From: Candidatus Dormiibacterota bacterium
Lineage (GTDB): Bacteria; Chloroflexota; Dormibacteria; Aeolococcales; Aeolococcaceae
Assembly (NCBI GenBank): GCA_036495095.1
Contig: DASXNK010000194.1
Span: forward strand, 14,498-78,497
DNA length: 64,000 bases
Direction of reading: 5' to 3'
The notes under the pieces are model-generated. The model searched no databases and had not been told where the DNA came from. It was given only the letters and a program-made list of their open reading frames with translations. The position numbers and the translations under genes are program-made. Shown here one piece after another: positions 1,865 to 62,444 of this stretch (position 1 is the stretch's first letter; the number at the start of each line of letters is the position of its first letter).

Positions 1865-2704
1865 ATGCCGAGATACATCCTGGACCAGACCTGGGAGCGC
1901 GAGGCCGAGCGCCTCGACGCGCTGGAGCGCTGCGGCGATCCGCTCACCGTCGACCACCTGCGCCGCACCGGCGTCGGCACCGGCTGGGACTGCCTCGAGG
2001 TGGGTGCGGGCCGGGGCTCGATCGCCCGCTGGCTCGCCGACCGGGTCGGCGACCGGGGCACGGTGCTGGCGGTGGATCTCGACACCACCCTGCTCGAGGA
2101 GGAGCGGCGCCCCAACCTCGAGGTGCGCCGCCTCGACATCCTCAGCGACCCGCTCCCCGCCGCGGCCTTCGACCTGGTCCACGCCCGCCACGTCATCGGC
2201 CATCTTCCGGACCGCGCCCGCGCGCTGCACCGCCTCGCCGCCAGCCTGCGCCCGGGCGGGTGGTTGCTCGTCGAGGACTTCGACTTCCGCTGGGCCGAGC
2301 TCGGCGACTGGCCCTGCGACCCGGTCGACGCCGGCCCCGTGTTCGGCCGGGTCTGGTCGGCGACCCTGGAGGTGATGCGCACCGGCACCTACGACGGCGG
2401 CTGGTCCTGGCGGGCGGCGGCCGGCCTGCGCGCGGTGGGGCTCGCCGAGGTGGCGGGCGAGGCGAGGGCGCCGATCGGCGACCGCGCCTTCACCGAGATG
2501 ATGCACCTCACGATGCTGCGGTTCCGCGAGCCGGTGATCGCCGGCGGCATCCCCGAGGCCGACATCGACCGCTGCCTCGCCATGCTCGCCGACCCTGGCA
2601 GCTGCGTCACCGCGGCGCCGCTGGTGTCGGTCTGGGGGCGGCGGCCGCCCCCGGACCGAACACCTCAGCGCGCCGCCCGGAGCGCGGCGACGAACCACTC
2701 GTAG
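1865..2704 (+). CDS. class I SAM-dependent methyltransferase
   Basis: Motif I 'LEVGAGRGSIARWLADRVG..GTVLAVDLD' and 'LRPGGWLLVEDF'. ATG 1865 with GAGG 7 nt upstream. The longer track ORF from 1739 is probably leader. Confidence 0.65.
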   Translation: MPRYILDQTWEREAERLDALERCGDPLTVDHLRRTGVGTGWDCLEVGAGRGSIARWLADRVGDRGTVLAVDLDTTLLEEERRPNLEVRRLDILSDPLPAAAFDLVHARHVIGHLPDRARALHRLAASLRPGGWLLVEDFDFRWAELGDWPCDPVDAGPVFGRVWSATLEVMRTGTYDGGWSWRAAAGLRAVGLAEVAGEARAPIGDRAFTEMMHLTMLRFREPVIAGGIPEADIDRCLAMLADPGSCVTAAPLVSVWGRRPPPDRTPQRAARSAATNHS

Positions 2705-3591
2705 GCGGGCGTCAGCGAGGGCCCCTGCGGCCAGCCGTTGATGACGCCGATCAGGTTCCAGTAGCGCTCCACCCGCTGGTCGCTGAAGGTCTCGAGCATC
2801 CAGACCAGCTCGGCGCGATACGCGGCGTCGTCGCTCCGGTGGGCGGCGGTCGCGAACAGCCCGACCAGCTCGTCGGCGATCGCCGCCGCCCCCTCCGACT
2901 CCGGCGCGACCCCGGCGGCGATCGCCGCCTGGCCACGCTCCACCACCGCCCGCCCGGCCTCCGCGGTGGGCTTGTCGTCGTGGCTGATGCCGGAGCCGGC
3001 CCGCAGCCGGGCCCCCTCGGTGACCATCCGCCGCACCCGGGCACGGAAGTCGGCGTCGCCGACCATTCCGGCGAGCTCGACCCAGGCGTCGATCTGGGCG
3101 TCGGACGGGTCCTCCGGCAGCGTGGGCAGGCCGCTGCGCATCACCGTGGCGAAGGGGTCGTCGGGATGGTCGGCGAAGACGGAGGCGATGAAGTCCTCCA
3201 TGATCCGTCCGGCCTCATCGGCGGACGTGCGGGCGAACGCGGTCATGCGATGTACCTCCTCGGGCCGGGAGTCGCGGCGGGCGATGGCCCGCAGCAGCGT
3301 CCGGCGCAGGGTGAGCTGACGGATGTGCAGGTCGATGGCGTCGGCGTGGGCGCTGGCCACCTCGGCGAGCCCGGCCCGGCGGTCGAGGACCTGGCGGATC
3401 GTCGCCAGGTCGAACCCCAGGTCGCGGAGGGTGCGGACCAGCTCGAGCCGGGCCAGCCCGGCCTGGTCGTAGCGGCGATAGCCGGACGGGCTGCGCTCGG
3501 CCTCGGGGGCGAGCCCGATGTCCGAGTAGTAGCGGACGGTCTTCACCGGGAGCCCGGTGAGCCGCGCCATCTGGCCGATCGAGATGTCCAT
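2665..3591 (-). CDS. MerR family transcriptional regulator with ~200 aa C-terminal effector-binding domain (TipA-like architecture)
   Basis: N-terminal HTH 'IGQMARLTGLPVKTVRYYSDIGL...SGYRRYDQAGLARLELVRTLRDLGFDL' is canonical MerR, followed by a coiled-coil and C-terminal domain. Confidence 0.8.
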   Translation of the reverse strand: MDISIGQMARLTGLPVKTVRYYSDIGLAPEAERSPSGYRRYDQAGLARLELVRTLRDLGFDLATIRQVLDRRAGLAEVASAHADAIDLHIRQLTLRRTLLRAIARRDSRPEEVHRMTAFARTSADEAGRIMEDFIASVFADHPDDPFATVMRSGLPTLPEDPSDAQIDAWVELAGMVGDADFRARVRRMVTEGARLRAGSGISHDDKPTAEAGRAVVERGQAAIAAGVAPESEGAAAIADELVGLFATAAHRSDDAAYRAELVWMLETFSDQRVERYWNLIGVINGWPQGPSLTPAYEWFVAALRAAR

Positions 3592-3691: not shown

Positions 3692-3723
3692 ATACTCATG
3701 AGAATGCATATTCTCATGAGTAT
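3692..3723. promoter_or_regulatory. perfect inverted repeat ATACTCATGAGAAT-GCAT-ATTCTCATGAGTAT (14 bp arms, 4 bp spacer); candidate MerR operator in the divergent promoter
   Basis: Read directly from the sequence, ~100 nt upstream of the MerR start (3591), in an intergenic region. Unusually AT-rich for this genome. Confidence 0.6.
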
Positions 3724-3829
3724 CTGGTGCAAGGATGCCCTTACGGGGCATCTGTCCGCAACCGTGCACTCCCGGGATCCGCCCCGCTCGGATCTGGACC
3801 CGATGGAGTTCGCAGGTGCGGCCAGTCCA

Positions 3830-4069
3830 CTAGTAGTAGTAGGCGTCGACGTCACCGGCCGGCGCCCCGACCTGCCGGGCACCGTGGTCGACGGCCTCGG
3901 CGGGGATCTCGGATCGGCGCCGGGGGAACCGGCCCCGTTGGATGTAGAACTTGAGCAGCAGGGCAAACCCCATCCGGTTCTCGCCCCGCTTGGCCTGGAT
4001 GAGCGCCTGCTCGTCCGGAAGGACGGTCCAGTGCTCGATCAGCTCATCTGGATCGAGCTCTCGGCGCAC
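3830..4069 (-). pseudogene. tnpA: Tn3-family transposase TnpA N-terminal (DUF4158) fragment, truncated after 79 codons
   Basis: 'DELIEHWTVLPDEQALIQAKRGENRMGFALLLKFYIQRGRFPRRRSEIPAEAVDHGARQVG' matches the Tn3 TnpA N-terminal domain. It then hits a stop, and no downstream transposase frames follow. Confidence 0.6.
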
Positions 4070-4217
4070 CAGCCCTGCTTCGCCGGCAAAGTTCCGAGAA
4101 TGCTCGGAGGCGGAACTCGGGAGCCCAGGCCTTGGGGGCGGACAATTCTCTGGAAGGCGGGCTGTCGAATCGCGAGACGAGGACCCTAGCCTCCACGGCT
4201 CACGGGGTGATCAGCAC

Positions 4218-4679
4218 ATGTGGCCACTCTTGATCCTTCTGCTGGCGAGCATGGCGGCGCTCGGTGCGTACCTAGCCGCCCATGGGTTCAGGGACGGCCG
4301 CTGGGGTGGCTACGTCGTGCTCTATGCCGCGGGCGTCGCCGGCGCGGCGACATGGGGTCAGTGGTCCGGCCTCACCCAGTCGATCCGGCTCGAGCTGGTC
4401 TTCGGCTTCGTTTTGGTAGGTGTTGCGCTCTGGGGGATGGCCCTATTCGACGTCGTTTCGCGGGCCGACGCATCACTTGGTAGTCGAGTGGGGTACATCA
4501 TTTTTCTGCTACTGATCCCGCCGTACGGGGTGATCGATTGGGCTATCGATCGCACGGACGGCAGGTTGCGGGCGGAGGTCATCAGTTTGACGATTGCGAC
4601 AACCGCCACTCTACTGGGATCGTTCGCCGTAAACGCTTGGTGTAGCATGCATGGGCTTCGTGCGCTCCCTCCTTTGTGA
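4218..4679 (+). CDS. hypothetical polytopic membrane protein (lower-GC passenger gene)
   Basis: ATG 4218. 4-5 predicted TM helices ('LLILLLASMAALGAYLAA', 'LVFGFVLVGVALWGMALF', 'GYIIFLLLIPPYGVI'). Codon usage is less GC-rich than in neighbouring genes. Confidence 0.4.
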   Translation: MWPLLILLLASMAALGAYLAAHGFRDGRWGGYVVLYAAGVAGAATWGQWSGLTQSIRLELVFGFVLVGVALWGMALFDVVSRADASLGSRVGYIIFLLLIPPYGVIDWAIDRTDGRLRAEVISLTIATTATLLGSFAVNAWCSMHGLRALPPL

Positions 4680-4779
4680 TCCGAAGGCGACTCGTCGGGC
4701 CTCGTGGGCGTTCGGACAGCCATCGGGGTCTCGGTGCTCTCCGGTCTCCCCGCAGCTCTGGCGATCGAGTCCAGAGTGT

Positions 4780-4912
4780 GGGCAACCTGGCCGCCAGCGC
4801 GATCGCGGGCGTCCTCTGGTCCGCGATCTCGCCCGTGGTCGCCTTCGGCTACCTCGCCGGCTGGATGGCGCTTGCGCTCGGTGCTCTGGTCACCATCCGT
4901 CGCCGCACCTGA
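4780..4912 (+). pseudogene. C-terminal ~40 codons of an MFS transporter (remnant of the gene disrupted by the transposon)
   Basis: 'VGNLAASAIAGVLWSAISPVVAFGYLAGWMALALGALVTIRRR' is a typical MFS last TM helix. No upstream MFS body is present in any frame. Confidence 0.45.
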
Positions 4913-4960
4913 TCCGAGATCCGACCCCGAATCTCATATCCGTTGGTTTTTCGGCCATTG

Positions 4961-5452
4961 CTACCGGGCCCCCCCCTCGGCCGCGGCCTTGATCCGCGCC
5001 AATGTCGCCTCCATGCCGCGGCGGTTGTGGGCGGCGCGGTCGCCCACCCCGGTGGCGACCCTGCCGAGCGCCCGGATCACCCCGCCGCGGGAGTCGGTCC
5101 AGGTCTCGCTGATCCGGCAGCCGCCGGGGATGGCGGTCACCGTGTAGCGCCACTCCGCGACCGGCAGCCCCATCGAGGCGACCCGGAAGGCGAAGCTCCG
5201 GCCCGGGTCGGCCGACACCACCGTCGAGACCGTCGACCAGCGTCGCAGGCCGATGCGGTTGTGCCCGCGGAAGCGCGCCCCCACCGCGGCACCGCCGGCG
5301 CCGCCCATCCACTCGCAGCGCACGCACTCGGGGCTCCACTCCCCCATCCGGCGCACGTCCGAGACCAGCGCGTAGACCGCCTCGGCGGGAGCGGCGACGT
5401 CGACGCTCACCTCCACCGGCGGCGGCCCCGGCTCCCGGTTCACCCCGCCCAT
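4961..5452 (-). CDS. SRPBCC (Bet v1/START-like, polyketide cyclase-dehydrase fold) family protein
   Basis: 'VDVAAPAEAVYALVSDVRRMGEWSPE' N-terminal signature of the SRPBCC superfamily; 163 aa. Confidence 0.6.
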   Translation of the reverse strand: MGGVNREPGPPPVEVSVDVAAPAEAVYALVSDVRRMGEWSPECVRCEWMGGAGGAAVGARFRGHNRIGLRRWSTVSTVVSADPGRSFAFRVASMGLPVAEWRYTVTAIPGGCRISETWTDSRGGVIRALGRVATGVGDRAAHNRRGMEATLARIKAAAEGGAR

Positions 5453-5494
5453 CGCCCGTCCTCCGTCACGCCGCAGATCGTAGTGGGGAGCGGA

Positions 5495-5953
5495 TCAGCG
5501 GGGCAGCTGCTCGCGCCAGACGTTGCCGAGGACCCGCACCGGCCCGGCCAGCCCCTCGCGACAGCAGGCCAGGACCTCGGGGCCGATGGGCGGGTACATC
5601 TCCAGGGTGGCGAGATCCTCCACCGGCTCCCAGGCGACGCCGACGAGGCGGCCGTCCATGCCCGCGCGGAGGCTGCCGCCGCGGATGCTCCCGGCGTAGA
5701 CCAGGTTCACGAGATGGCGGCCGAGCGGCGCCACCGACTCGCAGAGCAGCAGCAGGCGGCCGACGTCGACCTCGTAGCCGGTCTCCTCACGAAGCTCGCG
5801 CTCGGCGGCGGCGGCCAGGGTCTCCCCCACCTCGACGCCACCGCCGGGCAGCAGCCGGTAGCGGCGGCCGTTCTTCAGGTGCTGGACCAGCAGGACCCGA
5901 TCGCCGTCCTGGATGAGCACCGCCACGCGGATCCGGATCTCGCGCGCGTGCAT
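5495..5953 (-). CDS. NUDIX hydrolase (MutT-like)
   Basis: Nudix box 'LPGGGVEVGETLAAAAERELREETG'. ATG at 5953-5951 chosen over the upstream track start (6079) because the extra 42 aa are low-complexity. Confidence 0.7.
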   Translation of the reverse strand: MHAREIRIRVAVLIQDGDRVLLVQHLKNGRRYRLLPGGGVEVGETLAAAAERELREETGYEVDVGRLLLLCESVAPLGRHLVNLVYAGSIRGGSLRAGMDGRLVGVAWEPVEDLATLEMYPPIGPEVLACCREGLAGPVRVLGNVWREQLPR

Positions 5954-6001
5954 CGGCGGATCATCCCACGCCCACCGCCGGTCGGGTTTCTCCCACACCT
6001 G

Positions 6002-6030
6002 TTGACTCCGAACGCCTGTTCGTGTACGCT
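6002..6030 (+). promoter_or_regulatory. sigma-A-type promoter of the LysM gene: -35 TTGACT (6002-6007), 17 nt spacer, -10 TACGCT (6025-6030)
   Basis: Hexamers and spacing read directly from the sequence. LexA box 1 lies inside the spacer. Confidence 0.5.
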
Positions 6031-6052
6031 CGCCATGCGAACAGGCGTTCGT
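6009..6052. promoter_or_regulatory. two LexA (SOS) boxes: CGAACGCCTGTTCG (6009-6022) and CGAACAGGCGTTCG (6039-6052); the whole 44 bp forms a larger inverted repeat
   Basis: Both match the Gram-positive/actinobacterial SOS box consensus (T)CGAAC-N4-GTTCG(A) perfectly in the core. Located between divergent NUDIX and LysM genes. Confidence 0.7.
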
Positions 6053-6090
6053 GAGCAGAGACGACCCCCCATCGACCACCCACCCACGAC

Positions 6091-6414
6091 ATGACCAACC
6101 TCCTCCACGACTTCGCCCCCGCCAACGCCCGCCGGCGCCGGCGCCGCATGCGCGCCATCGAACGGCGCATCCTGCTCGCGCTCGCCGGGGCGCTGATCCT
6201 CCTCGTGCTCCTCGGGAACGTGGTCTACGGCGGCAGCAGCGGTGGCACCCAGGTGGTCACCGTGGGCCCCGGTGACACGGTCTGGAGCATCGCCTCCGCG
6301 CACTACCCCGACGACGGCGACCTGCGTCAGCGGGTCGACGACATCCTGTCCATCAACCACCTCAGTGGCGGGACGCTGGTGCCGGGCCAGGCGCTGACGA
6401 TCCCGCCGCCATAG
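6091..6414 (+). CDS. chiZ: LysM-domain membrane protein, ChiZ (Rv2719c)-like SOS-induced cell-wall/division protein
   Basis: Arg-rich N-terminus, one TM helix ('ILLALAGALILLVLLGNVV'), C-terminal LysM 'VVTVGPGDTVWSIASAHY...VDDILSINHLSGGTLVPGQALTIP'. Immediately downstream of dual LexA boxes. Confidence 0.65.
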   Translation: MTNLLHDFAPANARRRRRRMRAIERRILLALAGALILLVLLGNVVYGGSSGGTQVVTVGPGDTVWSIASAHYPDDGDLRQRVDDILSINHLSGGTLVPGQALTIPPP

Positions 6415-6527
6415 GCAGGGGAGGAAGCGCCCGGCGCTGACCCACGCGCGCGATCGGACCCACCTCCCTCTCCGCTCTCGCGCCGCGGCCCCTCCCCTGC
6501 TCCGGTGGTGCTGCCTCCGACGAGCGG

Positions 6528-7451
6528 CTATGGGGCGCCCAGCAGCTGCCGCAGCGCAGGCTCGAGGTCCGGATACCGGACGGCATAGCCGAGACCGAGC
6601 AGGCGCCCGGCCGACACCCGCTGCCCGGTGGTGACCATCGACGCCATCTCGCCGTAGAGGAGGCGCAGCGCCAGCGCGGGGACGGGCGTCACCGCGGGAC
6701 GGCGGAGCACGGCGCCCAGGGTTCTCGACAGCTCGGCGTTGGTGACCGGGGTGGGCGCGACCACGTTGACCGGTCCCGCCGCCCCGGCATCGTCGACGCA
6801 GTGCAGGAGCGCGCCGGCGACGTCGTCGAGGTGCACCCAGCTGACCCACTGGCGCCCGCCGGCGACCGGCCCTCCGGCGCCGAGACGGAAGGGCGGGAGC
6901 ATCTTGGCGAGCGCCCCGCCCTCCGGCGAGAGCACCACCCCGGTGCGCGCGACGACCACCCGCAGGCCCGAGGCATCGGCCGCCGCGAGGGCCTCGCGCT
7001 CCCAGGCGACGACCACTCCGGCGAGGAAGTCGGCGCCCGCCGGCGACCGCTCGTCGAGCCATTCGTCGCCGTGAGGGCCGTAGAAGCCGGTCGCCGACTG
7101 CGACACCAGCGTCCGCGGCCTCCGATCCTCCGGCAGCCCGGCGATGGCGGCGACCAGCGAACGGGTGGAGAGCACCCGGGAGTCGGAGATCTCGCGCCTG
7201 GCGCTCTCGGTCCAGCGCTGCGCCACCGGCTCGCCGAGCAGGTGGACGACGGCGTCCGCGCCGGCGAGCGCGGCCTCGGGCGGCGGGGCCGACGCCGGGC
7301 GGGGCCACGCGTGGAGCTCCACGCCCGAGAGCCCTCGGTGGGCACGGTCTGGGTCCCGGGTCAGGGCCACGACCTCGTCGCCGCGGCGCTGCAGGGCGGC
7401 GGCCACCGCGGTGCCGATCGTCCCGGTGGCTCCGGTGAGCACCACGCGCAT
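6528..7451 (-). CDS. TIGR01777/YfcH family NAD-dependent epimerase-dehydratase-like oxidoreductase (with DUF1731 C-terminus)
   Basis: 'MRVVLTGATGTIGTAVAAAL' Rossmann motif; 307 aa; overall YfcH-like pattern. Confidence 0.6.
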   Translation of the reverse strand: MRVVLTGATGTIGTAVAAALQRRGDEVVALTRDPDRAHRGLSGVELHAWPRPASAPPPEAALAGADAVVHLLGEPVAQRWTESARREISDSRVLSTRSLVAAIAGLPEDRRPRTLVSQSATGFYGPHGDEWLDERSPAGADFLAGVVVAWEREALAAADASGLRVVVARTGVVLSPEGGALAKMLPPFRLGAGGPVAGGRQWVSWVHLDDVAGALLHCVDDAGAAGPVNVVAPTPVTNAELSRTLGAVLRRPAVTPVPALALRLLYGEMASMVTTGQRVSAGRLLGLGYAVRYPDLEPALRQLLGAP

Positions 7452-9274: not shown

Positions 9275-9904
9275 CTAGCGGAGGACGCGCACCACCGCGA
9301 CCACCACACCCTCGAGGTGGAGGTCGCGGACGTAGATGGGCTCGAGCGCGCGGTTCTCGGGCTGCAGCCGGATGCGCCCCGCCTCGCGGAAGAAGCGCTT
9401 CACGGTGACCTCGTGCTCCCCGGTCTGCTCGTTCTCGATGCGCGCCACCACGATCTGGCCGTTGCTGGCGTCGCTCTGGGGGCGGACGACCACCATGTCG
9501 CCATCGTGGATGCCGCACTCGATCATGCTGTCGCCGCGGACGTGCAGCGCGAAGGCGTCGTCGCCGCCGGCGATCTCCGGCCCGAGCACGATGCGGTCCT
9601 CGATGTTCTCCTCGGCGAGGATGGGACCACCGGCGGCCACCCGACCGACCAGCGGGACCGAGAAGCTCCGCGGGACCGCCACCGGCTCGTCGCCGACCAC
9701 CTCGACCGTGCGGGACTTGGTGGGGTCGCGACGGATGTGACCCTTCTGCTCCAACGCATTCAGGTGGTTCTGCACCGTCGACGAGGAGCTGAGCCCGACC
9801 GCCTGCCCGATCTCTCGGACGGTGGGCGGGTATGCGTGATTGCGGGCGTGATTCCTGAGGAATTCCAGGATTTCCCGCTGCCGCGGATTGAGGCCCTCGA
9901 CCAT
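9275..9904 (-). CDS. lexA: LexA repressor
   Basis: N-terminal wHTH 'LNPRQREILEFLRNHARNHAYPPTVREIGQAVGLSSSSTVQNHLNALEQKG'. C-terminal S24 peptidase with 'AAGGPILAEE' cleavage region and 'VRGDSMIECGIHDGD...VKRF' Ser/Lys dyad. Confidence 0.95.
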   Translation of the reverse strand: MVEGLNPRQREILEFLRNHARNHAYPPTVREIGQAVGLSSSSTVQNHLNALEQKGHIRRDPTKSRTVEVVGDEPVAVPRSFSVPLVGRVAAGGPILAEENIEDRIVLGPEIAGGDDAFALHVRGDSMIECGIHDGDMVVVRPQSDASNGQIVVARIENEQTGEHEVTVKRFFREAGRIRLQPENRALEPIYVRDLHLEGVVVAVVRVLR

Positions 9905-9962
9905 GAAAATGTCCTCTTCGGCTGGCGCGTCGCGGAATGTAGCACGGGCGGCGGGGGAAATG

Positions 9963-9975
9963 CAAACGTTTGTTC
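9963..9975. promoter_or_regulatory. degenerate LexA box CAAACGTTTGTTC upstream of lexA (autoregulation)
   Basis: One half-site mismatch versus GAAC-N4-GTTC. Followed on the lexA strand by TACATT (-10-like) ~21 nt downstream and a GAAGAGGA RBS. Confidence 0.5.
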
Positions 9976-10024
9976 CCGGGCACTCGCGGAGTGTGTGGGG
10001 GCCCCTCCGGGACGTGCGTTCCGG

Positions 10025-17401: not shown

Positions 17402-18787
<1,386 letters not shown>

Positions 18788-18877
18788 GACCGGGAAGTCT
18801 AGGGGCTCACTCGGTGGTCGACGCCATCCAGGGCAGCATAGCGAACATCCGTACGGAAGACCAGCGCCGGACCAGGC

Positions 18878-22376: not shown

Positions 22377-23450
22377 CTACCCCCCGGTGGCCGGCGCTGC
22401 CGCGGACCCGTTTGCGGACGGCGTCGCCGGCGTCGCCGGGACGTCGGCGGCGGGGGCCGGGGCGGGGAGCAGGCTGGCCCGGACCCGCTGGGCGATCTCG
22501 CCGAGCAGGTCGGGGTTCTGGCGCAGGAAGTCGCGGACGTTCTCGCGCCCCTGGCCGAGGCGCATGTCGCCGTAGCTGAACCAGGCGCCGCTCTTCTCGA
22601 CGATGCGGCTCTCCAGGGCGACGTCGAGGACGCTGCCCGCGTAGGAGATGCCCTCGTCGTAGAGGATGTCGAACTCGGCCGCGCGGAAGGGCGGGGCCAC
22701 CTTGTTCTTCACCACCTTGACCTTGACCCGGCTGCCGACCACGTCGAGGCCCTGCTTGATGGAGTCGATCTTGCGGATGTCCATGCGCACCGAGGCGTAG
22801 AACTTCAGCGCCCGGCCGCCGGTGGTGACCTCGGGGTTCCCGAACATCACCCCGACCTTCTCGCGCAGCTGGTTGATGAAGATCACGCTGGCGTTGGAGC
22901 GGCTGATGGCAGCGGTGAGCTTGCGCATCGCCTGGGACATCAGCCGGGCCTGGAGGCCGACGTGAGTGTCGCCCATCTCGCCGTCGATCTCCGCCTTGGG
23001 GACCAGCGCGGCGACGGAGTCGATGACGATCACGTCGACCGCACCGCTGCGCACCAGCACCTCGACGATCTCCAGGGCCTGCTCCCCGGTGTCGGGCTGG
23101 GAGATGAGCAGCTCCTCGGTGCGCACCCCGATGCGCGCGGCGTACTGGGGGTCGAGGGCGTGCTCGGCGTCGATGAAGGCGGCCACGCCCCCCCGCTTCT
23201 GGGCCTCGGCGATGATGTGGAGGGTGAGCGTGGTCTTGCCCGACGACTCCGGCCCGTAGATCTCGACCACCCGGCCGCGGGGCACGCCGCCGACGCCGAG
23301 GGCGATGTCGAGGGTCAGCGCCCCGGTGGGGATGGCGTCGACGTTGCGCTGCGCGTCGGCTGCCCCCAGCCGCATGATCGCGCCCTTTCCGTAGGAGCGC
23401 TCGATCTGGCCCAGCGCTGTGCTCAGCGCGCGTTCTCGCTCGGTGGACAC
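22377..23450 (-). CDS. recA: recombinase RecA
   Basis: '[26 protein letters not shown]', Walker A 'GPESSGKTT'. GTG 23450 preceded by AAGGAG. The 438-aa track ORF overextends upstream. Confidence 0.9.
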
Positions 23451-23604
23451 CGGCTCGGTCTCCTTGGGGGCGGCGCCACGCCGCCCGCTGCCTGCGGTGC
23501 TCCGGAGTGTCCCACTTTCCAGTGTGTTTGTCAATGCTTCAACTCCGGGGGTGGTCGGACCGAACATATGTATGGTAGCCGGACCCGCAGGGGGGCTGCA
23601 GGGA

Positions 23605-24261
23605 TCACCCCCCGGCGACCCGACCCCGTCCCCGGGCCGCCCGCCGGGCGGCCTCGGTGCAGAGACCCAGCGCCGCCCGCACCGCCACGCCACGGTTGGC
23701 CTCCCGCCCGTGGTCGCCCTCCAGGCGCACCGCCCGGCGCCGGCCGTCGGGGCCGGCGACCGCCACCCAGATGAGCCCCGGCGGCTTCTCCGAGCCGGCG
23801 GCGCCGGGGCCGGCGACGCCGGTGATCCCGAGGCCGATGTCGGCGTGGAGCCGGCGGCGCGCCCCGGCCGCCATCGCCAGCGCCACCGCCTCGCTCACCG
23901 CCCCGTGGGCCTCGATGAGCTCGGCGGGCACCAGGAGGAGGTCGATCTTCACCTCGTCGGCGTACGCGACCACCCCGCCGAGCATGTAGCGCGACGAGCC
24001 CGGCAGGGCGGTGATCACCGCCCCGAGCAGGCCGCCGGTGCACGACTCGGCGGTGGCCACGGTGAGGCCGGCGGCGAGCAGCGCCGCCGCGGACGCCGCC
24101 GACTCCGGGTAGAGCTCGGCCAGCAGCGGCTCCGCCGAGGGATCGCGGCGGGCGCGGCGCCGGACCAGCCCCCGGGCGGCCGCGCCGACGCCGACCCCGA
24201 TCGCCCCGGCCCCGGCGCCGATCAGCACCGAGATCGCCGCCCCCCGACCCTCGTCCGCCAT
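23605..24261 (-). CDS. cinA: CinA C-terminal domain protein / NMN amidohydrolase PncC-like
   Basis: '[25 protein letters not shown]...[40 protein letters not shown]'. The N-terminal 40 aa are hydrophobic, so the start is uncertain. Confidence 0.75.
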
Positions 24262-52121: not shown

Positions 52122-52435
52122 CGTGGCGATGTCAGTACCTCCTGAGTGACCGTGTCCAGGCCGCCGGCGAGGCTGTCCCAGTCGATGCGGTCGGATGTTG
52201 TGCGCAGGGCGCGGACGAGCGCATGACGGCGCCTCGCCTGCGCCAGACAGGTTGTACCCCGATCACGGCACAGGTATGCACCGCGGCCGTTCCGCTTCCC
52301 GGTCGGATCGAGGGCGGCCGGACCCTCGGCGGGGAGGACGATGCGCAGCAGCTCGCGCTTGGGCCGCACCGTGCGGCAGCCGATGCAGGTGCGCTCGGGG
52401 CGGCTGGGGGCGGCGGCGAGGGGAGCGTCACTCAT
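52118..52435 (-). CDS. ylxR: YlxR/DUF448 family RNA-binding protein
   Basis: '[17 protein letters not shown]...[14 protein letters not shown]'. Confidence 0.85.
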
Positions 52436-53406
52436 GACTGCTCCAGGTCGTCGCTGCGGATGTCGATGCGCCAGCCGGTGAGCCGGGCGGCGAGCCGGGC
52501 GTTCTCTCCCGAGCGGCCGATGGCCAGGGAGAGCTGCCCGGCGGCGACGGTGATGTGGGCGGTGCGGGTGGTCTCGTCGAGCTCGACGGCGACCACCTCG
52601 GCGGGGGCGAGCGCCCGGGCGCAGAAGACCGCCGGGTCGGCCGACCAGCCCACGATGTGGAGCTGCTCGCCGGCCAGCTCGGCGACCACGGCGCGGTGGC
52701 GGACGCCGCGCGGCCCGATGCAGGCGCCCTCGGCGTCGAGGGTGCCGCCGGCCGCGTAGACGGCGACCTTGGTGCGCCGCCCCGGCTCGCGGGCGATGGC
52801 GCGGATGGCGATCTGCCCCGAGGCCATCTCCGGCACCTCCTGCTCGAGCAGGCGGCGGACCAGGTTGGGGTGGGAGCGCGAGACCACCACGGCGGCGTCA
52901 CGGCCGCGGCGGCGGACGTCGACCACCACCACCTTCAGGTGGCGGTTGCGCTCCGGGATCTCGCCGGGGATCTGCTCCTCGATGGGCAGCAGCGCTGGGA
53001 AGCGGTCGTTGCGCAGCCACCAGGCGTCGCCGTCGGGGCGCTCGACGATGGTGTCGATCAGCTCGCCCCGCCGGGCCGACCCCTCGCGGAGCACACGGTC
53101 GCGCTCGGCCTCGCGCAGCCAGCCGCCGACGGCGCCGCGGACGGCGAGCGCCGCCTGGCGGGAGAAGTCGGGCCCGGGGTCGTCGACTCGCTCGCGGCCG
53201 CCGCTCCGGGTGGGCCGGAAGAGCTCGACGGCCCCGGAGCCGAGGTCGACGTGGGCGCGCACCTCCGCGTCGGTCGGGGCCACCCGGTGGTAGGCCTCGG
53301 TGACCGCGCGCTCCATCACCGCGAGCAGCTCGGCCTCGCCGACCTCGGCGGTGGAGCCCAGCTCGGCGAGGGCGGAACGCAGCTCGCTCACCACCGAATC
53401 GGCCAC
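52432..53406 (-). CDS. nusA: transcription termination/antitermination factor NusA (no C-terminal AR repeats)
   Basis: S1 and KH domains; 'GPRGVRHRAVVAELAGEQLHIV', 'IGRSGENARLAARLTGWRIDI'. Confidence 0.9.
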   Translation of the reverse strand: MADSVVSELRSALAELGSTAEVGEAELLAVMERAVTEAYHRVAPTDAEVRAHVDLGSGAVELFRPTRSGGRERVDDPGPDFSRQAALAVRGAVGGWLREAERDRVLREGSARRGELIDTIVERPDGDAWWLRNDRFPALLPIEEQIPGEIPERNRHLKVVVVDVRRRGRDAAVVVSRSHPNLVRRLLEQEVPEMASGQIAIRAIAREPGRRTKVAVYAAGGTLDAEGACIGPRGVRHRAVVAELAGEQLHIVGWSADPAVFCARALAPAEVVAVELDETTRTAHITVAAGQLSLAIGRSGENARLAARLTGWRIDIRSDDLEQS

Positions 53407-53407
53407 A

Positions 53408-53965
53408 TCAGATCTCCACCGCGAGGCGGCCGGCGAGGAGGTCGGCGAAGGCCACGTGCACCGTGCCGGGATTGCGCTTCACCCGCACCTCGACGTCCAT
53501 GCCGTCGTCGGAGACGGCGAGCAGGCGGCCCTCGACGACGGTGTCGGCGTCGCCGTTGCGGAAGCGCACGTTCACCCGCGAGCCCACCGCGCCGAGCCAG
53601 TGCTCGTGCTCGTGGAGCGGACGCTCGGCGCCCGGCGAGGAGACCTCGAGGGTGTATTTCGAGCTGATCGGGTCGTTCGCGTCGAGGACGGCGGCGACCG
53701 CGTGGGAGACGTGCGCGCAGTCGTCGAGGTTCACCCCGCCCGGCTTCTCGATCAGCAGGCGAAGCGTCGGGGGCGTGTGCTGACCGTCCCACTCGGCTCC
53801 GTACAGCTCGACGCCGCAGAGCGCCAGGGAGGGCAGGACCAGCTCGGTGATGCGCGCAAGCGCGTCGTTCGACACTTCAGGACGCTGTGGTGGAGCGGGT
53901 GGAGGCCCGTTCCGGGGGTTGGGTCGGGTGCTGCGGCACCCCGACACCGCCGGCGGCAGGAGCAC
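53408..53965 (-). CDS. rimP: ribosome maturation factor RimP
   Basis: 'LRLLIEKPGGVNLDDCAHVSHAVAAVLDANDPISSKYTLEVSSPG'. Start uncertain (track GTG 53965 or an internal GTG near 53875). Confidence 0.8.
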   Translation of the reverse strand: MLLPPAVSGCRSTRPNPRNGPPPAPPQRPEVSNDALARITELVLPSLALCGVELYGAEWDGQHTPPTLRLLIEKPGGVNLDDCAHVSHAVAAVLDANDPISSKYTLEVSSPGAERPLHEHEHWLGAVGSRVNVRFRNGDADTVVEGRLLAVSDDGMDVEVRVKRNPGTVHVAFADLLAGRLAVEI

Positions 53966-54065
53966 GGTGGTGGGCAGCCCCTGAGTATAACGCGAACACC
54001 TGCTCGCCGCAGGAGCCCCTTTCCCGAGCGGGCGCGGGGGAGGCGTCGCCCTCTCCCGCGCGGCG

Positions 54066-61628: not shown

Positions 61629-62387
61629 TCAGCCAACCGACTCGAGGACCTCGTCGGGGATCTCCACGTTGGCGTAGACCTGCTGGACGTCGTCGTGCTC
61701 CTCGAGCGAGTCGAGCAGCCGCAGCACCGCCGGCGCCTGCTTGGCGTCGACCGCCACCGAGGTGCTCGGGGCCATCGTGACCTCGGCGTTCTCGATGGTG
61801 TAGCCACGGTCCTCGAGGGTGCGGCGGACCTCCTCGAAGCGGGTCGGCGCGACCGTGACCTGGACCGAGCCGCCGTCGACGGCGACGTCGCCCTCCTCAC
61901 CCACGTCGACGGCGTCGAGCACCTCGAGGGCGAGCTCCTCGGGGTCGGCCGCGCCGGCGTCGAGGCGGAGCACGCCCTCCTGGCGGAACATCCAGGCGAC
62001 GGTGTTGCTCTCTCCCAGCGACCCGCCGGAGCGGGTGAACATGTTCCGCAGCGCCGCCACGGTGCGATTGCGGTTGTCGGTGAGCACATCGACCATGACC
62101 GCCACGCCGTGGGGCCCGTAGCCCTCGTAGCGGATGTCCTCGAGCTGGGCGCCCTCCTTGCCACCGACGCCGCGCTGGATGGCGCGCTCGATGTTGTCGG
62201 CGGGCATGTTCACCTCACGCGCCTTCTGGATGGCGAGGCGGAGCCGGAAGTTGCCGTCGACGTCGTTGCCGCCCTCACGGACCGCGACGGTGATCTCGCG
62301 GGCGACCTTGGTGAAGACCTGTCCGCGCTTGGCGTCGACGATCGCCTTCTTGTGCTTGATCCCCGCCCATTTGCTGTGACCGGACAT
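61629..62387 (-). CDS. yebC: YebC/PmpR family DNA-binding transcriptional regulator
   Basis: 'MSGHSKWAGIKHKKAIVDAKRGQVFTKVAREITVAVREGG'. Confidence 0.9.
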   Translation of the reverse strand: MSGHSKWAGIKHKKAIVDAKRGQVFTKVAREITVAVREGGNDVDGNFRLRLAIQKAREVNMPADNIERAIQRGVGGKEGAQLEDIRYEGYGPHGVAVMVDVLTDNRNRTVAALRNMFTRSGGSLGESNTVAWMFRQEGVLRLDAGAADPEELALEVLDAVDVGEEGDVAVDGGSVQVTVAPTRFEEVRRTLEDRGYTIENAEVTMAPSTSVAVDAKQAPAVLRLLDSLEEHDDVQQVYANVEIPDEVLESVG

Positions 62388-62419: not shown

Positions 62420-62444
62420 GTTCGGCGCGCCGAACAGACGTTCC
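62420..62444. promoter_or_regulatory. LexA box CGAACAGACGTTCC (62431-62444) overlapping a 16-bp perfect palindrome GTTCGGCGCGCCGAAC (62420-62435), upstream of yebC-ruvCAB and adjacent to a TAGAAT -10-like hexamer
   Basis: Perfect GAAC-N4-GTTC core. On the coding strand TAGAAT immediately precedes the box. Confidence 0.6.

Follow-up and report, generated by a model that had tools for sequence, protein, structure and literature searches.

Paired SOS boxes in the predicted promoter of a YneA/ChiZ-type LysM gene of Candidatus Dormiibacterota

Gene content of the locus

This work deals with a short intergenic region in a 64,000-nucleotide stretch of DNA from a Candidatus Dormiibacterota bacterium (GenBank assembly GCA_036495095.1, contig DASXNK010000194.1); the whole stretch is called the window below. 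The region carries two SOS boxes, putative binding sites of the repressor LexA, and lies upstream of a plus-strand gene (6091..6414) for a 107-aa protein of the YneA/ChiZ type, in which Pfam places a LysM domain at residues 57–105 (E = 3.5e-10). On its other side stands a divergent gene for a Nudix hydrolase (5495..5953, minus strand; 152 aa), recognised by Pfam NUDIX at E = 7e-19 and having at residue 38 an intact Nudix box, GGVEVGETLAAAAERELREETGY, which agrees with the pattern GX5EX7REUXEEXGU. The gene of the cognate repressor, lexA (9275..9904, minus strand; 209 aa), is located beyond the LysM gene at a distance of 2.9 kb, with an epimerase/DUF1731 gene, a CtaG-type gene, and an open reading frame (ORF) without a family match in between. 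An earlier reading of this DNA (the original prediction) had proposed that the boxes form a LexA operator pair in the promoter of a ChiZ-like LysM gene, that a divergent NUDIX gene may share this operator, and that lexA is about 3 kb away. The NUDIX gene and the distance agree with what we found, and the other claims are considered below.

SOS boxes and the cognate repressor

Box 1, CGAACGCCTGTTCG, occupies positions 6009..6022, and box 2, CGAACAGGCGTTCG, positions 6038..6051. They are exact reverse complements of each other, with 14-nt arms, 15 nt between them, and 29 nt from start to start, and together make up a palindrome of 43 bp. The original prediction recognised this complementarity and placed box 1 correctly, whereas its coordinates for box 2 (6039–6052) are off by one base and its “super-palindrome” was given as 44 bp. 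The exact motif CGAAC-N4-GTTCG occurs in the 64-kb window only in these two boxes; the mean number expected from dinucleotide-preserving shuffles is 0.04, and two matches were obtained in none of the 100 shuffles. The motif is the Gram-positive LexA box, which in Mycobacterium tuberculosis has the version TCGAAC-N4-GTTCGA (PMC3381160).

The product of lexA is well recognised by TIGR00498 (213 bits at a cutoff of 111) and by the Pfam families LexA_DNA_bind and Peptidase_S24, and its translation contains the Ala-Gly cleavage site together with the Ser/Lys motifs. As a side observation, this gene has a Shine–Dalgarno sequence, GAGGA, a few bases before its ATG (9905–9925).

For a search that did not depend on exact matches, a weight matrix was built from 40 distinct boxes of other genomes, the window being left out, and the window was then scanned. 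Seven sites scored from 15.7 to 20.9, and the next best reached 8.6. The two boxes of the LysM gene share the top of the list (20.9 each), followed by the sites before three canonical SOS units. One of these (62431..62444; score 18.7) lies 44 nt upstream of yebC (61629–62387, minus strand), which is followed by ruvC, ruvA, and ruvB; another (23561..23574; score 17.8) precedes recA, the ORF listed at 22377–23693 on the minus strand, in which the RecA domain begins at residue 88. The third (9963..9976; score 16.8) is the degenerate box of lexA itself, CAAACGTTTGTTCC (GGAACAAACGTTTG on the strand of the gene), 59–72 nt upstream of the lexA ATG. The presence of the same motif before recA, lexA, and yebC-ruvCAB supports LexA as the repressor. 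The LysM gene alone in the window has two sites, both of them perfect, while recA, lexA, and the ruv unit have one imperfect site each. With a palindromic motif, an encoded cognate LexA, and the motif at canonical SOS genes, the boxes have the marks expected of a Gram-positive (Cheo box) LexA operator.

The two remaining sites, CGAACATCCGTACG (18842–18855; score 16.4) and CGAACACCTGCTCG (53993–54006; score 15.7), score with the LexA group, yet they adjoin no classical SOS gene. The former is 55 nt upstream of miaB (17402–18787, minus strand); the latter is upstream of an ORF at 53408–53965 (minus strand), which precedes nusA (52432–53406, minus strand).

Conservation of the promoter

The boxes are interleaved with the elements of a predicted promoter of the LysM gene. 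Its -35 hexamer is TTGACT (6002..6007, plus strand) and its -10 hexamer is TACGCT (6025..6030, plus strand), which is of the TAnnnT type. The 17-nt spacer between them (6008–6024) is filled by box 1, and box 2 begins 8 nt past the -10, over the expected transcription start. The same layout had been read originally in the sequence, and comparison with relatives shows it to be conserved.

For this comparison, 160 loci encoding relatives of the LysM protein (numbered with the prefix L) were collected from species-representative genomes and metagenomes. The nearest one, L001, is a contig of a metagenome-assembled genome that is about 95% identical to the window, and therefore comes from a different, related genome. 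Among the closest relatives, the labels are Chloroflexi, Chloroflexota, or Chloroflexia, or else Candidatus Dormiibacterota, which the NCBI taxonomy treats as a separate phylum. Two layouts were distinguished within the Dormibacterota. In arrangement A (69 loci with lexA in view), the order is lexA on the minus strand, three boxes about 29 nt apart, and then the LysM and NUDIX genes, both on the plus strand. In arrangement B (the window and 24 loci), NUDIX on the minus strand is followed by two boxes and by LysM on the plus strand, and lexA is found 2–3.7 kb downstream on the minus strand.

In the 11 close loci (78–98% protein identity), the -35 TTGACT is invariant, as are the half-sites of box 1; box 1 as a whole, GTACGCT, and box 2 are invariant or nearly so, while the rest of the intergenic DNA between NUDIX and LysM differs from locus to locus in both sequence and size. 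TTGACA, CGAACGGGTGTTTG, and TAnGCT are retained by the distant arrangement-B loci (about 40–54% identity); their second box is degenerate (CAAACAGACGTTCC or GGAACAGACGTTCT) and mostly follows the first at 32–34 nt. Across all loci we found 85 distinct operators, that of the window included, which are built as TTGACn, a gap of 0–2 nt, box 1, and box 2. This set takes in representatives of the Actinomycetota (L046, L057, L061, and L065) and of the Bacillota (L060 and L069), and the spacing of the boxes is 29 nt in 59 operators (the modal value) and 33 nt in 11. Of the 84 other operators, 78 have a TAnnnT hexamer between their boxes, where 0.15 is expected by chance, and in these 78 the spacer between the -35 and the -10 is 17 nt in 63 cases and 18 nt in 14. 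This frequency of TAnnnT, together with the recurrent spacing, indicates that the promoter geometry is a conserved design.

The reverse-complement relation of the two boxes has a different status. Full complementarity of their N4 spacers is limited to 7 of the 85 operators, namely to the subclade of the window and one locus with two identical self-palindromic boxes; most commonly, one or two of the four positions match. In the close relatives L002, L003, and L005, the pairing between the boxes is broken by changes that are not compensated. The element that is conserved is the GAAC/GTTC dyad of each separate box, a pattern expected of two sites that bind one dimer each. Since complete complementarity is so rare among the operators, the relation between the boxes is incidental.

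In other phyla, the intergenic regions between lexA and the LysM gene contain three or four boxes, the spacings of which recur. In the metagenome-assembled genomes of Actinomycetota, 30 nt is followed by 33–34 nt (L046, L057, and L061) or 25 nt by 33 nt (L065); the Bacillota (L060 and L069) have 14, 28, and 29 nt. These recurrent spacings suggest a conserved geometry of multi-site operators.

We also considered a 19-codon upstream ORF, which has its ATG at 6035 and a stop codon overlapping the LysM start codon (ATGA; 6035–6094). It is probably meaningless because its ATG is absent from most of the close relatives, including L001, L081, and L002. In the arrangement-A relatives, the LysM start codon lies inside the second promoter box or just past it, and their LysM mRNAs may be leaderless or nearly so.

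The LysM protein

The N-terminus of the protein (residues 1–26) is rich in Arg, with nine Arg/Lys residues against two acidic ones; it is followed by a transmembrane (TM) helix at residues 27–45 (Kyte–Doolittle hydropathy 2.79) and by a C-terminal part that is net acidic. This combination is the positive-inside signature of a bitopic protein with the N-terminus inside and the C-terminus outside, so that the LysM domain is predicted to be external. An AlphaFold2 model based on the family alignment (mean predicted local distance difference test score, pLDDT, 74) comprises a helix at residues 9–47 and then the beta-alpha-alpha-beta fold of LysM. Neither Pfam nor the model revealed a catalytic domain in addition to the TM helix and the single LysM domain. 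The small, Arg-rich, single-TM LysM protein of the original prediction is thus confirmed by Pfam, by hydropathy and charge, and by the model.

Among the NCBIfam models, the top match is NF010723, “cell division suppressor protein YneA” (33.4 bits, E = 3.2e-8), in which residues 44–105 are aligned with positions 21–85 of 87; the same model is the best one for an arrangement-A ortholog (38.3 bits, positions 9–86 of 87). Within the PGDTVW motif, the family alignment shows no variation at G61 and at least 90% conservation at D62, and has Thr or Ser at position 63. In YneA, the binding of peptidoglycan and toxicity both require the equivalent residues, D46 and T47 (PMC13396833).

Homologs from two cultured bacteria, in which the gene is adjacent to lexA and divergent from it, have the same build: their N-terminus is basic, and a TM helix and LysM follow. 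The protein of Alicyclobacillus (L069; Bacillota) is 38% identical over residues 16–105, and that of Geodermatophilus (L028) is 46% identical over residues 29–105; both are colinear through the TM helix and LysM, and the alignments span a stretch within LysM that exceeds its counterpart in canonical LysM domains by about seven residues. If read from the first start codon available, the Geodermatophilus ORF encodes a long N-terminus rich in Arg and Pro, similar to that of ChiZ. Clustering with unrelated LysM lipoproteins, which the original prediction had named as an outcome that would speak against it, was not found. The label “ChiZ-like” should be modified: the protein is of the YneA/ChiZ type, but its size and the curated model bring it nearer to YneA than to ChiZ.

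Position of lexA and history of the locus

In 113 of the 161 sequences examined, lexA is divergent from the LysM gene and adjacent to it. Such orthologs are found in most Dormibacterota and also in Actinomycetota and Bacillota, and divergence from lexA, seen also for yneA and chiZ, is the recognised hallmark of these inhibitors (PMC6851548). The arrangement-A locus L013 may serve as an example of the layout: ATGCAAACACTTGTTCG, 9 nt, TTGACG, CGAACACCTGTTCG, TGT, TATCGT, 6 nt, and CGAACGCATGTTCG. Its NUDIX ATG is 18 nt past the LysM stop codon, and in other arrangement-A loci the extrapolated gap is 52–65 nt; given these short gaps, the two genes look like an operon.

When 107 distinct LexA sequences were placed in a neighbour-joining tree, the 21 tips of arrangement B constituted one exclusive clade, which is sister to the arrangement-A clade. 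Outside both are L007, L010, L020, and L048 (Dormibacterota with a lexA-divergent LysM gene and no NUDIX), and then the Actinomycetota and Bacillota. On this tree, the separation of lexA from the LysM gene, which had been noted originally as a departure from the mycobacterial layout, is a derived rearrangement of a single clade. The topology suggests the following order of events as the most parsimonious: an ancestral divergent pair of lexA and LysM, the gain of NUDIX downstream of LysM, and one rearrangement in the lineage of the window.

The ancestral layout, as reconstructed from arrangement A, had a third box proximal to lexA. In nearly all arrangement-B loci, the relocated lexA has a CAAAC-N4-GTTCC box 58–67 nt upstream of its start codon (the exception is L042, with CGAACGGAGGTTCC at 74 nt), and this box is similar to ATGCAAACACTTGTTCG, which in arrangement A is the box nearest to lexA. 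With lexA retaining this box and LysM its own two, the ancestral cluster of three boxes was thus split, each gene keeping the site or sites that belonged to it.

The Nudix neighbour

The Nudix gene adjoins the LysM gene in both layouts, downstream on the same strand in arrangement A and divergently in arrangement B. No substrate subfamily (MutT, NudC, RppH, or others) could be assigned to its product, every match to an NCBIfam equivalog being far below the cutoff; the nearest solved structures are generic MutT/NUDIX proteins, 8-oxo-dGTPase, and NUDT18 (E from 1e-7 to 1e-11).

A putative -10 hexamer of this gene, GATGAT (5960..5965, minus strand), is located 6 nt before its ATG. A hexamer is found in the same place in relatives, the sequence being GATAAT-N6-ATG for the distant arrangement-B loci and TAGACT-N6-ATG for L004, L006, L084, and L085. 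A -10-like element so close to the start codon suggests a leaderless Nudix mRNA. In the subclade of the window, about 20 additional, poorly conserved nucleotides put box 1 56–69 nt upstream of the Nudix ATG, beyond the likely leaderless promoter, which makes direct repression of this gene by LexA doubtful here. The sharing of the operator envisaged in the original prediction is plausible for the distant arrangement-B loci because their Nudix -35 would overlap box 1.

One can tentatively suggest that the SOS checkpoint of one large Dormibacterota lineage is a two-gene module composed of a YneA/ChiZ-type LysM protein and a dedicated Nudix hydrolase. These would be co-transcribed from the double-operator promoter in arrangement A and would stand back to back after the rearrangement that led to arrangement B. 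If this speculative view is correct, the Nudix enzyme is an SOS effector not recognised before; perhaps, it cleans the damaged nucleotide pool or acts on a nucleotide-linked precursor of the cell wall, thereby reinforcing or relieving the block of septation. A literature search, which yielded general genome surveys, gave no documented parallel for a conserved Nudix partner of the LysM gene, and this partner is the only element of the locus without precedent.

Discussion

The presented analysis suggests that the region at 5990–6060 is, in all likelihood, the LexA-repressed promoter of an SOS division inhibitor of the YneA/ChiZ type. The corresponding core of the original prediction, a LexA operator pair in the promoter of such a LysM gene, is backed by the conservation of the promoter, the weight matrix, the architecture of the protein, the NCBIfam match, and the synteny in the sister lineage. 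Under this reading, LexA dimers bound to box 1 in the spacer and to box 2 at the start site would block both the binding of RNA polymerase and initiation. DNA damage would lead to RecA-stimulated self-cleavage of LexA and would free the promoter. The product would be inserted with its N-terminus inside; by analogy with YneA, its TM helix would address FtsW, which synthesises septal peptidoglycan, and nascent peptidoglycan would be bound by the LysM domain, so that septation is paused until repair is done. Two perfect sites, compared with one imperfect site at recA, lexA, and ruv, would place the LysM gene among the most tightly repressed and the latest induced SOS genes of this bacterium.

The closest known counterpart is probably YneA of Bacillus subtilis. 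Both proteins have a single N-terminal TM helix, an external C-terminal LysM domain, and a GDT motif, both are (or are predicted to be) under Cheo-box LexA control through more than one site, and YneA provides the top match among the curated models. The sizes are also similar: 107 aa for the window protein, 87 positions for the YneA model, and 108 aa for the Alicyclobacillus protein. The window protein differs from YneA by a strongly Arg-rich cytoplasmic N-terminus of 26 aa and by ending directly after the LysM domain, and its gene is located away from lexA and paired with a Nudix gene. In B. subtilis, the lexA-yneA region has three LexA sites, and the operon partners of yneA are yneB and ynzC. 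The TM helix of YneA binds TM7 of FtsW, and its LysM domain must bind peptidoglycan in order to block septal synthesis; ChiZ is predicted to act on FtsW in the same way (PMC13396833).

The similarity to ChiZ of M. tuberculosis (Rv2719c) concerns DNA-damage inducibility, which is predicted for the gene in the window, and the service of one gene by several SOS boxes; at the sequence level, lexA-adjacent homologs of actinomycetes, for example that of Geodermatophilus, were compared as proxies of ChiZ. ChiZ is longer, at about 165 aa, and has a long disordered N-terminus, and its gene is divergent from lexA, whereas the gene in the window is 3 kb away. Of the four boxes between lexA and Rv2719c, three regulate Rv2719c; the boxes are imperfect (two or three mismatches), and induction proceeds mostly via a RecA-independent promoter (PMC3381160); in contrast, the boxes in the window are perfect and are situated in the core promoter.

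The physiological role proposed for the LysM protein, that of an SOS-induced and tightly LexA-repressed division checkpoint, is the same as that of SulA of Escherichia coli. The two proteins are unrelated: SulA is cytoplasmic and binds FtsZ, and it is controlled through another type of LexA box. SosA of Staphylococcus aureus and DivS of Corynebacterium glutamicum are likewise small, LexA-controlled proteins with a single TM helix and an extracellular C-terminus, which act late in division (PMC6851548); they have no LysM domain and no sequence similarity to the window protein, and should be regarded as analogues, not as members of the family.

Several observations weigh against the proposed function of the region. 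A generic scan of 5800–6600 for sigma-70 promoters and terminators called nothing; the promoter was missed because TACGCT coincides with TATAAT at only three of six positions, and our promoter call therefore rests on conservation. The LysM gene is without a Shine–Dalgarno sequence (ccacccacgacATG, 6075–6093), and in this genome it stands apart from lexA, from which the recognised inhibitor genes diverge. The scores of the window protein and of the arrangement-A ortholog are below the equivalog cutoff of NF010723 (60 bits), and the protein should therefore be considered a relative of YneA and not its equivalog. Its similarity to the named relatives lies mostly within the LysM domain, which is common, and neither a sequence search of the PDB with the family profile nor a Foldseek search of the PDB with the AlphaFold2 model gave a ChiZ or YneA entry, the matches being generic LysM domains, which are uninformative about the family beyond this domain. 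ChiZ itself was at one time reported to hydrolyse the cell wall (cited in PMC6851548). What the sequences show is the boxes, the geometry of the promoter, its conservation, the build of the protein, its family ties, and the history of the synteny; LexA binding, damage induction, the position of the transcription start, and division inhibition are predictions drawn from this computational analysis, and the targeting of FtsW is an analogy, the mechanisms of such inhibitors differing between species.

Some of these points are compatible with a gene that is SOS-induced and does not inhibit division, its product being a factor of peptidoglycan binding or remodelling, or a membrane anchor that works with the Nudix enzyme. 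The subthreshold YneA score, the first description of ChiZ as a hydrolase, and the conserved Nudix pairing, which has no counterpart at the yneA, chiZ, and divS loci, could be explained in this way. However, a protein limited to a TM helix and one LysM domain has no catalytic part, its position and architecture match those of tested inhibitors (PMC6851548, PMC13396833), and two perfect operators suggest a toxic and tightly repressed product; we consider a role outside division control rather improbable, though it is the most serious competitor. Much less credible is the possibility that the boxes serve as operator for some other repressor, or are a chance or relic occurrence, before an ordinary, constitutively expressed cell-wall gene. 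LysM proteins are indeed very common, and the binding of LexA to the boxes is a prediction, but the motif is the canonical Gram-positive LexA box, far in excess of the 0.04 exact copies expected, it recurs before the canonical SOS units of the window, and it is kept upstream of lexA-adjacent orthologs in three phyla.

An equally slight chance is given to the view that the 43-bp palindrome acts as a nucleic-acid structure, that is, as a hairpin in the 5'-leader RNA (an attenuator or stability element) or as a DNA cruciform. The arms are 100% complementary, and a hairpin with 14-bp arms is predicted (centroid energy -31.7 kcal/mol, z-score -3.8). This fold is stable, but the pairing on which it depends is not conserved across the operators, while the dyad of each box, a signature of a site for a dimeric protein, is. 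Moreover, the hairpin loop would contain the conserved -10, and with the -35 situated before box 1, that box would not be transcribed; no run of T follows the stem, and an Rfam search of 5700–6700 at a permissive threshold gave no match. For these reasons we rejected the structural explanation and retain the reading of the region as a LexA-repressed promoter of a division inhibitor.

As an SOS switch, the locus belongs to a well-known kind of system, and the current understanding of the SOS response is unchanged by it; the locus is unusual only in the position of the gene, which is no longer next to lexA, and in the association of this gene with a Nudix gene. The data would add Candidatus Dormibacterota, an abundant uncultured phylum of soils known here only from metagenome-assembled genomes, to the groups with a YneA/ChiZ-type SOS checkpoint and a Gram-positive LexA box; among the papers searched, none names both Dormibacterota and LexA. 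The operator design, with one site in the spacer and one at the start, is conserved in Bacillota, Actinomycetota, and Dormibacterota, which suggests an old and constrained way to silence a toxic gene. With less confidence, one may regard the promoter with a “box in the spacer and a box at +1”, at a spacing of about 29 bp, as an ancient cassette of the three phyla. The locus also illustrates how an operator cluster may be split when the checkpoint gene and lexA become separated, each of them keeping the site or sites it needs.

Other features of the window

Positions 3692–3723 hold an inverted repeat whose 14-bp arms match perfectly around a centre of 4 nt (ATACTCATGAGAAT-GCAT-ATTCTCATGAGTAT). 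It is AT-rich in a part of the window with about 65–80% G+C, and is located about 100 nt upstream of a MerR-family regulator gene (2665–3591, minus strand) and 6 nt from the segment described next; it could be a MerR operator or the end of an inserted element. This segment of 1.76 kb (3730–5491), which ends right beside the Nudix gene, is absent from the nearest relative, L001. It contains an ORF at 3951–4679 (plus strand) without a Pfam match and a gene of the SRPBCC/polyketide-cyclase type at 4961–5452 (minus strand), and the G+C content falls to 58% around 4400–4700. The segment represents either a recent insertion in the window or a deletion in L001.

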